DNA from: Escherichia coli
Lineage (GTDB): Bacteria; Pseudomonadota; Gammaproteobacteria; Enterobacterales; Enterobacteriaceae
Strand: one strand, 5' to 3'
Length of the DNA stretch: 64,000 bases
Assembly: GCF_041248615.1 (NCBI RefSeq)
Contig: NZ_CP158426.1
The position numbers were made by a program, and so were the translations under genes. The notes beneath the pieces are model-generated. The model had not been told where the DNA came from. It made no database searches and saw nothing but the letters and a program-made list of their open reading frames with translations. Positions 13,822-20,722 of the stretch are shown one piece after another (position 1 is the first letter of the stretch; every line of letters starts with the position of its first letter).

Positions 13822-14109
13822 ATGCTGCACACATTACATCGTTCACCCTGGCTGACGGATTTTGCTGCGCTGCTGCGTCTGCTCAGTGAAGGCGACGAAC
13901 TGCTATTATTGCAAGATGGCGTAACTGCCGCAGTTGACGGTAACCGCTACCTTGAAAGTCTGCGTAATGCCCCCATTAAGGTCTATGCCCTGAACGAAGA
14001 CCTTATTGCCCGCGGTTTGACTGGTCAAATTTCGAACGACATCATTCCCATTGACTATACTGATTTCGTCAGACTTACGGTTAAGCACTCCAGCCAGATG
14101 GCCTGGTGA
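13822..14109 (+). CDS. tusB: sulfurtransferase complex subunit TusB
   Basis: 95-aa [36 protein letters not shown]... Confidence 0.95.
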
Positions 14110-14131
14110 TGGCGGGATCGTTGTATATTTC

Positions 14132-14609
<478 letters not shown>

Positions 14610-14690
14610 TGGTTCTCCGTTAAGTAAGGCCAAACGTTTTAACTTAAATGTCAAACTAAACTCGTAGAGTTTTGGACAATCCTGAATTAA

Positions 14691-15176
<486 letters not shown>

Positions 15177-15260
15177 TCCCTTCGGAGTTTTAGTCACCAG
15201 GCGGGCGCTTCCAGTAAGCAGCCCGCTTTGGGCTACTTAAATTGAACGCCTAAAAGATAA

Positions 15261-17387
<2,127 letters not shown>

Positions 17388-18693: not shown

Positions 18694-18824
18694 CTGCCCG
18701 TAATTTGAGCTCGAAATATTTAGTCGTAATTTCACTCGCTGAACTATGGCGCAAATAAAACTGTGCTATTGTAATCACAACCATTCTCATTTACACTTTG
18801 CGCAGAATTTGAACGGGAGCAATC

Positions 18825-19019
18825 ATGTACGTTTGTTTGTGTAATGGTGTAAGTGACAAAAAAATTCGCCAGGCAGTCCGTCAGTTTCATCCGCAATCTT
18901 TCCAACAATTGCGTAAGTTTATTCCTGTGGGAAATCAATGCGGTAAGTGCATTCGCGCCGCGCGCGAAGTGATGCAGGACGAGTTGATGCAGATGCCAGA
19001 ATTTAAAGAGATTGCCTGA
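18825..19019 (+). CDS. bfd: bacterioferritin-associated [2Fe-2S] ferredoxin
   Basis: 64-aa ORF MYVCLCNGVSDKKIRQAVRQF...CGKC with four Cys. Confidence 0.95.
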   Translation: MYVCLCNGVSDKKIRQAVRQFHPQSFQQLRKFIPVGNQCGKCIRAAREVMQDELMQMPEFKEIA

Positions 19020-19091
19020 AGCCCACGCTTATTTTTTGACATCCCGCTAGCCCCATCTACGCTCTAATAGTGGAAGCGGAGGGACTATAAA

Positions 19092-19568
19092 ATGAAAGGT
19101 GATGTTAAAATCATAAATTATCTCAATAAACTATTGGGAAATGAGCTTGTCGCAATCAATCAGTATTTTCTCCATGCCCGGATGTTTAAAAACTGGGGCC
19201 TGATGCGTCTCAATGACGTCGAATACCATGAATCTATCGATGAGATGAAACACGCTGATAAATATATCGAGCGTATTTTGTTTTTAGAAGGAATCCCCAA
19301 CTTACAGGATTTAGGCAAACTGGGGATTGGTGAAGATGTCGAGGAGATGCTGCAATCCGACCTGCGATTAGAACTGGATGGCGCTAAGGATCTCCGTGAG
19401 GCTATCGCGTATGCCGACAGCGTTCATGACTATGTTAGCCGTGATATGATGATCGAGATCCTTGCTGATGAAGAAGGTCATATTGACTGGCTCGAAACTG
19501 AGCTGGATCTCATCGGTAAAATCGGTCTACAAAATTACCTGCAATCACAAATAAAAGTTAAAGATTAA
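19092..19568 (+). CDS. bfr: bacterioferritin
   Basis: 158-aa [40 protein letters not shown]... Confidence 0.97.
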
Positions 19569-20032
19569 CGGCCTGCCAGCAAACTATCCCAGCCTACAAC
19601 GAAACCCGCAGCCGCCAGAAATGGCCCAAACGGCAGCGGGTTTTTTAATGACTCTTTTCCTCTCATGAGCAGACCAATAACTACGGCTCCGCAAGCGAAT
19701 GAGGCAGCAAGGAAAACCAGTCGTGGCAAGAAGGTCCATGTATGCCAGGCACCAAGGGCGGCGAGAAACTTCACATCACCATAGCCTAATCCTTCTTTAT
19801 GACGTAGTATGCGATACCCCCAGTAAATGACAGCGAATGTGCCGTAACCAATAATCGCCCCCCATAACGCATCGGCTAAACCGTCAGGATTACAAACTTG
19901 ATAGAACAAAAGACCTGACCAGAGTAACGGGCACGTAAATCTGTCAGGTAACAAGCCATGCTTTGCATCCCAGAAAAAAAGTAGGGCTGATAAACAAGCG
20001 TACAAAATCAGAAAGGGAAGGGTAGCGTCCAT
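19565..20032 (-). CDS. hopD: short type IV prepilin (leader) peptidase, A24 family, HopD-like
   Basis: 155-aa polytopic membrane ORF with conserved [14 protein letters not shown] aspartyl-protease motif; lacks the N-terminal Cys-rich methyltransferase domain of GspO/PilD. Confidence 0.75.
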
Positions 20033-20205
20033 AAAACATCCTCTGTAATTGGAGTATCACCATCGAATAACTCCGGATGCTCAGCAACAGAGAAATCGCT
20101 GATTTGTTAACTTGGTTCCGGTGAAAAACGCTATCTTCACAACTTTACAAATTTCGTGGAATACAGCTCGCAATCTGCGCGTTGCGATTAATTTCTACCC
20201 GATGC

Positions 20206-20722
<517 letters not shown>

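Follow-up and report, generated by a model that had tools for sequence, protein, structure and literature searches.

Two forms of ribosomal protein S7 that differ in length are known from Escherichia coli. In E. coli B and almost every other E. coli, S7 (S7B; WP_001138043.1, a MULTISPECIES Enterobacteriaceae entry) consists of 156 residues, whereas that of K-12 (S7K; b3341, NP_417800.1; UniProt RS7_ECOLI) consists of 179. The K versus B polymorphism is established textbook material and is present in the literature; no paper with an explicit comparison of the K and B lengths of S7 was returned by our literature search. Both kinds of sequence, of 179/178 and of 156 residues, are found among the PDB depositions. 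A passage on K-12 ancestry places the C-terminal extension of rpsG, together with prfB Thr246, among mutations that became fixed in the ancestor shared by EMG2, MG1655 and W3110 (PMC9997739). The same passage, citing Schaub & Hayes (2011), describes these K-12 mutations as affecting translation, with poor termination at UGA, a weak RF2 (Thr246) and SsrA tagging of S7 (PMC9997739). In their passages on the str operon, reviews describe the translation of fusA as coupled to that of rpsG and locate the S7 repressor site in the rpsL–rpsG spacer (PMC10931766; PMC3616713).

Here, we analysed the rpsG locus in a stretch of 64,000 nucleotides from E. coli (NCBI RefSeq assembly GCF_041248615.1, contig NZ_CP158426.1), referred to throughout as the window. 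The window carries the normal form of the gene. Its S7 is identical to S7B, and the two loci share the TAA at the same codon and a 96-nt spacer to fusA, with no differences. Residues 1–156 of S7K are also identical to those of the window protein; S7K differs in having Leu157 and a 23-residue tail, a UGA located 27 nt before fusA and a mass of 20.0 kDa compared with 17.6 kDa. We conclude, with a probability of about 97%, that the window contains the wild-type ancestral rpsG, in which UAA follows Trp156, that the 179-residue S7 of K-12 is a derived form produced by an A-to-T stop-loss, and that the allele marks a non-K-12 strain and nothing more specific.

The rpsG allele and its stop codon

The features of the locus that are referred to in the text are as follows.

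14235..14609, + strand: rpsL (S12), the upstream gene of the str operon, from annotation; 0 SNPs compared with K-12
14706..15176, + strand: rpsG, 30S ribosomal protein S7/uS7, 156 aa plus TAA, from the open reading frame (ORF) list and Pfam PF00177
15174..15176, + strand: TAA stop, codon 157; diagnostic base 15175 is A here and T in K-12; context TAAT
15177..15245, + strand: stretch untranslated here and translated in K-12, 22 codons plus the K-12 TGA at 15243–15245, from translation and alignment
15191..15235, + strand: predicted stable RNA hairpin in the rpsG–fusA spacer; MFE −23.7 kcal/mol, z = −3.6 against shuffled sequences
15273..17387, + strand: fusA (EF-G), the next gene of the str operon, from the ORF list and annotation

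The position of rpsG in the str operon order rpsL–rpsG–fusA–tufA was evident from both the ORFs and the annotation. The encoded protein was matched to the Ribosomal_S7 profile (PF00177) with E = 2e-63 and a score of 212.8 bits (gathering cut-off 24), residues 2–149 being aligned with profile positions 1–148 of 148, and it is a member of the uS7 family. Its C-terminus, KAFAHYRW, is followed directly by TAA at 15174–15176, as read from the sequence and from the ORF list. The original prediction, made from the letters of the window, had placed the end of rpsG at 15176 after AFAHYRW with a 156-residue S7, and the ORF at 14706..15176 bears this out. The stop immediately after Trp156 and the identity of the protein to the reference short form define the short ('B-type' or wild-type) allele. 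In the matching record NZ_LT599825.1 rpsG is annotated as WP_001138043.1, and the calculated mass of the 156-residue protein is 17.6 kDa; with Met removed, the calculated values are 17,473 Da for this form and 19,888 Da for that of K-12. The start codon of fusA lies 96 nt past the rpsG TAA in the window and 27 nt past the TGA in K-12.

Upstream of the operon, a promoter-like sigma-70 site was noted at 14132–14160 (TTGACA, 17 nt, TAAAAT; near-consensus, with 11 of 12 bases matching). It lies approximately 75 nt upstream of rpsL, overlaps the 3' end of tusB and is presumably the str operon promoter.

Comparison with K-12 and E. coli B

The locus was compared base by base with that of K-12 MG1655 (NC_000913.3) over the 1,038 nt that separate the rpsL and fusA starts. 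A single difference was found, at 15175, where the window has A and MG1655 has T; the rpsL–rpsG spacer is identical in the two. In MG1655 codon 157 is accordingly TTA (Leu), and rpsG (b3341) is 540 bp in length and encodes 179 residues, which confirms the extended K-12 form assumed in the original prediction. A TAA at this codon in the K-12 reference had been named there as the result that would overturn the proposal; MG1655 has TTA. The frame in K-12 runs for 23 codons past codon 156 and reaches TGA at the equivalent of window positions 15243–15245. The window allele does not have the TTA at codon 157 or the continuation to this TGA that characterize the 179-residue allele.

The alignment of the rpsG 3' end with K-12 and B alleles that had been suggested as a check gave the expected result. 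Four sequences were aligned over 171 nt, with one variable column: the window, MG1655, a K-12 strain of type O16:H48 and the E. coli B derivative B-DolR. Codon 157 is TAA in the window and in the B derivative, in which rpsG is 471 bp in length and encodes WP_001138043.1, and TTA in both K-12 strains.

The stretch 15177–15245 has the same nucleotide sequence as in K-12, with no SNPs in the spacer. When the window frame is read past the TAA it yields 22 residues, which are those of the K-12 tail minus its first residue. The claim that the frame would continue as the K-12 tail if the stop were read through was therefore right as to the sequence downstream but not as to the leading Leu, for which the mutated stop codon (TTA) codes and not the sequence that follows. 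Similarly, the interval given for the difference, 15174–15240, starts correctly but ends 5 nt too early, since the K-12-equivalent TGA occupies 15243–15245 and the end is at 15245. No Pfam domain was matched by the S7 tail of K-12.

In the proposed mechanism, translation of S7 from the window allele ends at the UAA after Trp156 to give a protein of 156 residues, and the next 96 nt remain untranslated before fusA. In K-12, the single A-to-T change converts the stop to TTA (Leu), and ribosomes continue for 23 codons into the spacer as far as a UGA 27 nt before fusA.

The rpsG of the O16:H48 K-12 strain (NZ_CP043189.1; 367–834 of the extracted locus, corresponding to window positions 14706–15173) is recorded as a pseudogene by the NCBI automatic annotation. 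It is labelled 'incomplete; missing C-terminus' and was ended at codon 156; the curated MG1655 record gives 179 residues. The pseudogene call is an annotation artefact of the K-12 stop-loss, and the essential gene is intact.

Census among complete E. coli genomes

The rpsG locus was found at at least 99% identity in 5,425 of 5,426 complete E. coli genomes. Exact matches to a 61-mer around the stop were then counted in these 5,425: the TAA form was present in 5,062 and the TTA form in 348, while the remaining 15 matched neither 61-mer exactly and carried some other difference. The TTA form was also searched for using a 55-mer for which megablast seeding is possible only with the TTA base, and exactly 348 chromosomes were matched. 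The difference at codon 157 is not a chance pattern but a fixed single-nucleotide polymorphism, with a clean division in the census (5,062 TAA, 348 TTA).

An evenly spaced sample of 60 of the 348 TTA carriers was inspected by name. Most were named K-12 laboratory strains, and all 60 had K-12-sized chromosomes of 4.46–4.74 Mb. The named carriers include MG1655, W3110-type strains, BW25113, DH1, DH5alpha, NEB 5-alpha, HMS174 and J53, as well as AB1157, HB101, MC4100, TG1 and C600-type transconjugant recipients. A few of the 60 carried source labels of a field type (coffee plant, chicken, pig); judged from their names and sizes, these look like K-12 recipients or contaminants. The proposal that the stop marks a non-K-12 background is upheld by these counts (TTA in 348 of 5,425 genomes, those sampled being mostly K-12) and by the 277 SNPs that separate the flanks of the locus from K-12.

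Two records were anomalous. One complete genome among the 5,426 gave no match to the rpsG region, and in one genome the locus sits on a plasmid-labelled record; both are probably problems of assembly or labelling.

Ancestral state of the allele

The exact S7 of the window is a MULTISPECIES Enterobacteriaceae sequence of 156 residues. Its 90% cluster contains members of 156 residues in Salmonella, Enterobacter, Pantoea, Xenorhabdus, Arsenophonus and Gilliamella, and the 179-residue S7 (UniProt RS7_ECOLI) falls in a small separate cluster. Enterobacterial outgroup loci were obtained by look-ups with the exact protein. The rpsG–fusA junctions of Salmonella enterica and Enterobacter resemble that of the window: S7 has 156 residues, its stop is likewise TAA at codon 157, the spacer is 96 nt long and the predicted hairpin recurs; approximately 12% of the spacer positions differ from the window.

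The position of the stop was also checked over a wider range by scanning a genome collection with a degenerate KAFAHYRW pattern, a motif that proved to be very widely conserved. Among the matches listed were 120 genomes from many phyla, and in 120 of these 120 the stop follows directly after the terminal Trp (72 TAA, 40 TAG and 8 TGA). From the TAA in the Salmonella and Enterobacter loci and the stop after Trp in all of the genomes sampled, we infer that the window allele is ancestral and that the K-12 form is a derived stop-loss. The 156-residue form is the default for E. coli and for bacteria generally; it excludes K-12 and identifies no lineage, and the name 'B-strain allele' has historical meaning only.

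As the window and K-12 differ by one base at this locus, a sequencing or assembly error at 15175 that conceals a true TTA allele might be considered. However, 5,062 independent complete genomes match the same 61-mer exactly and Salmonella and Enterobacter share the base, and the probability of such an error is vanishingly small.

Genomic background of the window

Over its first 25 kb the window matches NZ_LT599825.1 (E. coli NRZ14408, chromosome of 5.34 Mb) at 100% identity, with window position 1 corresponding to position 512001 of that record. Relative to MG1655, the initial 18.7 kb carry 277 substitutions (98.5% identity), and identity is 97–99% elsewhere. A K-12 background would show itself in surroundings of the locus that are nearly identical to those of MG1655 and collinear with them, and this was not observed. 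The other K-12 markers named in the passage on K-12 ancestry, prfB Thr246, rph-1, rfb-50 and the ilvG frameshift (PMC9997739), are at loci outside the 64-kb window.

Several differences in gene content from K-12 were recorded. At 18694–20227 the window lacks chiA (in the tufA/bfd interval) and the whole of the cryptic gspA–gspO type II secretion cluster. In the bfd–bfr segment at 18825–19552 identity to K-12 is as low as 79%, and bfr is followed by a prepilin peptidase gene that is shortened. An insertion of 7.3 kb relative to K-12 is located at 50436–57707, just past the 5S–tRNA-Thr–5S end of the rRNA operon. It contains an IS1414 (IS256-like) transposase (50505–51713), a PhoX family protein (53399–55378), ABC-transporter genes with frameshifts and fragments of decayed transposases.

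The str region is a classical selection marker. A short rpsG could have been restored in a K-12 derivative, either by reversion of TTA to TAA or through the transfer of a B-type or wild str region by transduction or conjugation, and hybrid laboratory strains do exist, HB101 (a K-12 × B hybrid) being in the census. For the window this origin is extremely improbable: descent from K-12 with reversion or transduction of the str region is ruled out by the divergence of the flanks (277 substitutions in 18.7 kb and 97–99% identity elsewhere), by the gene content (chiA and the gsp operon missing, 7.3 kb inserted) and by the 100% identity of all 25 kb compared to the 5.34 Mb non-K-12 chromosome of NRZ14408.

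The rpsG–fusA spacer and its predicted hairpin

The spacer between rpsG and fusA is conserved among enterobacteria, with a mean column identity of 88%. In four sequences, which include Salmonella, Enterobacter and one other enterobacterial contig, the stem of the predicted hairpin is kept; the changes within it are of the G-C/G-U kind only, with no double compensatory change. An Rfam scan of 14000–15500 at a permissive threshold gave no match, and neither the S7-binding leader between rpsL and rpsG nor the spacer hairpin was covered. A terminator scan returned no terminator-like site in the rpsG–fusA spacer.

Between the rpsG TAA and the next in-frame stop there are 22 sense codons in E. coli (ending at TGA) and 27 in Enterobacter (ending at TAA), and in the Salmonella locus the frame is open into fusA, with no in-frame stop before the ATG. 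A 1-nt indel shifts the post-stop frame among these relatives. Since the frame is not kept as a frame and the conserved part coincides with the predicted hairpin, the comparison argues for conservation of the spacer at the level of RNA and not as a hidden coding extension.

These observations also bear on whether the UAA might be leaky or subject to programmed read-through, such that part of the S7 of non-K-12 cells would be extended and the frame downstream would be a real, conserved coding extension. The 22 open codons and the high conservation of the spacer speak for such a reading. The stop, however, stands in the context UAAU, the signal at which E. coli terminates translation most efficiently, the length and phase of the frame vary among relatives as given above, the conserved part is the part predicted to fold, and S7 across bacteria ends at the same Trp. 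Read-through is very improbable on this evidence, and termination at Trp156 in a wild-type allele is the reading that we retain.

In the Salmonella enterica record DAAMUV010000040.1 (1969–2070 of the extracted locus, compare window 15174–15275), rpsG and fusA are in the same frame, with 99 nt from the stop to the ATG. A stop-loss of the K-12 kind in that locus would fuse S7 to EF-G.

The predicted hairpin was also considered as an attenuator within the operon. This role is unsupported, only UUU being present after the hairpin with no terminator-like site.

The hairpin at 15191–15235 lies in the part of the spacer that K-12 ribosomes must translate through and that ribosomes on the window allele do not enter. 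It may be a functional cis-element, for example in the stability or processing of the mRNA or in the degree of translational coupling between rpsG and fusA, that would be folded in wild-type E. coli and unwound by ribosomes in K-12. We regard this model as doubtful.

Implications

Position 15175 (A or T) provides a quick single-base check of whether a sequence is of K-12 type or not. The polymorphism also illustrates a reference bias, in that the K-12 reference genome and the UniProt entry for S7 (179 residues) represent the exception, and automatic annotation sometimes flags the rpsG of K-12 as a pseudogene. If the predicted hairpin were indeed a cis-element, the K-12 stop-loss would shift the balance of expression between S7 and EF-G as well as altering S7 itself, and decades of work on how the str operon is regulated in K-12 would describe an atypical state.
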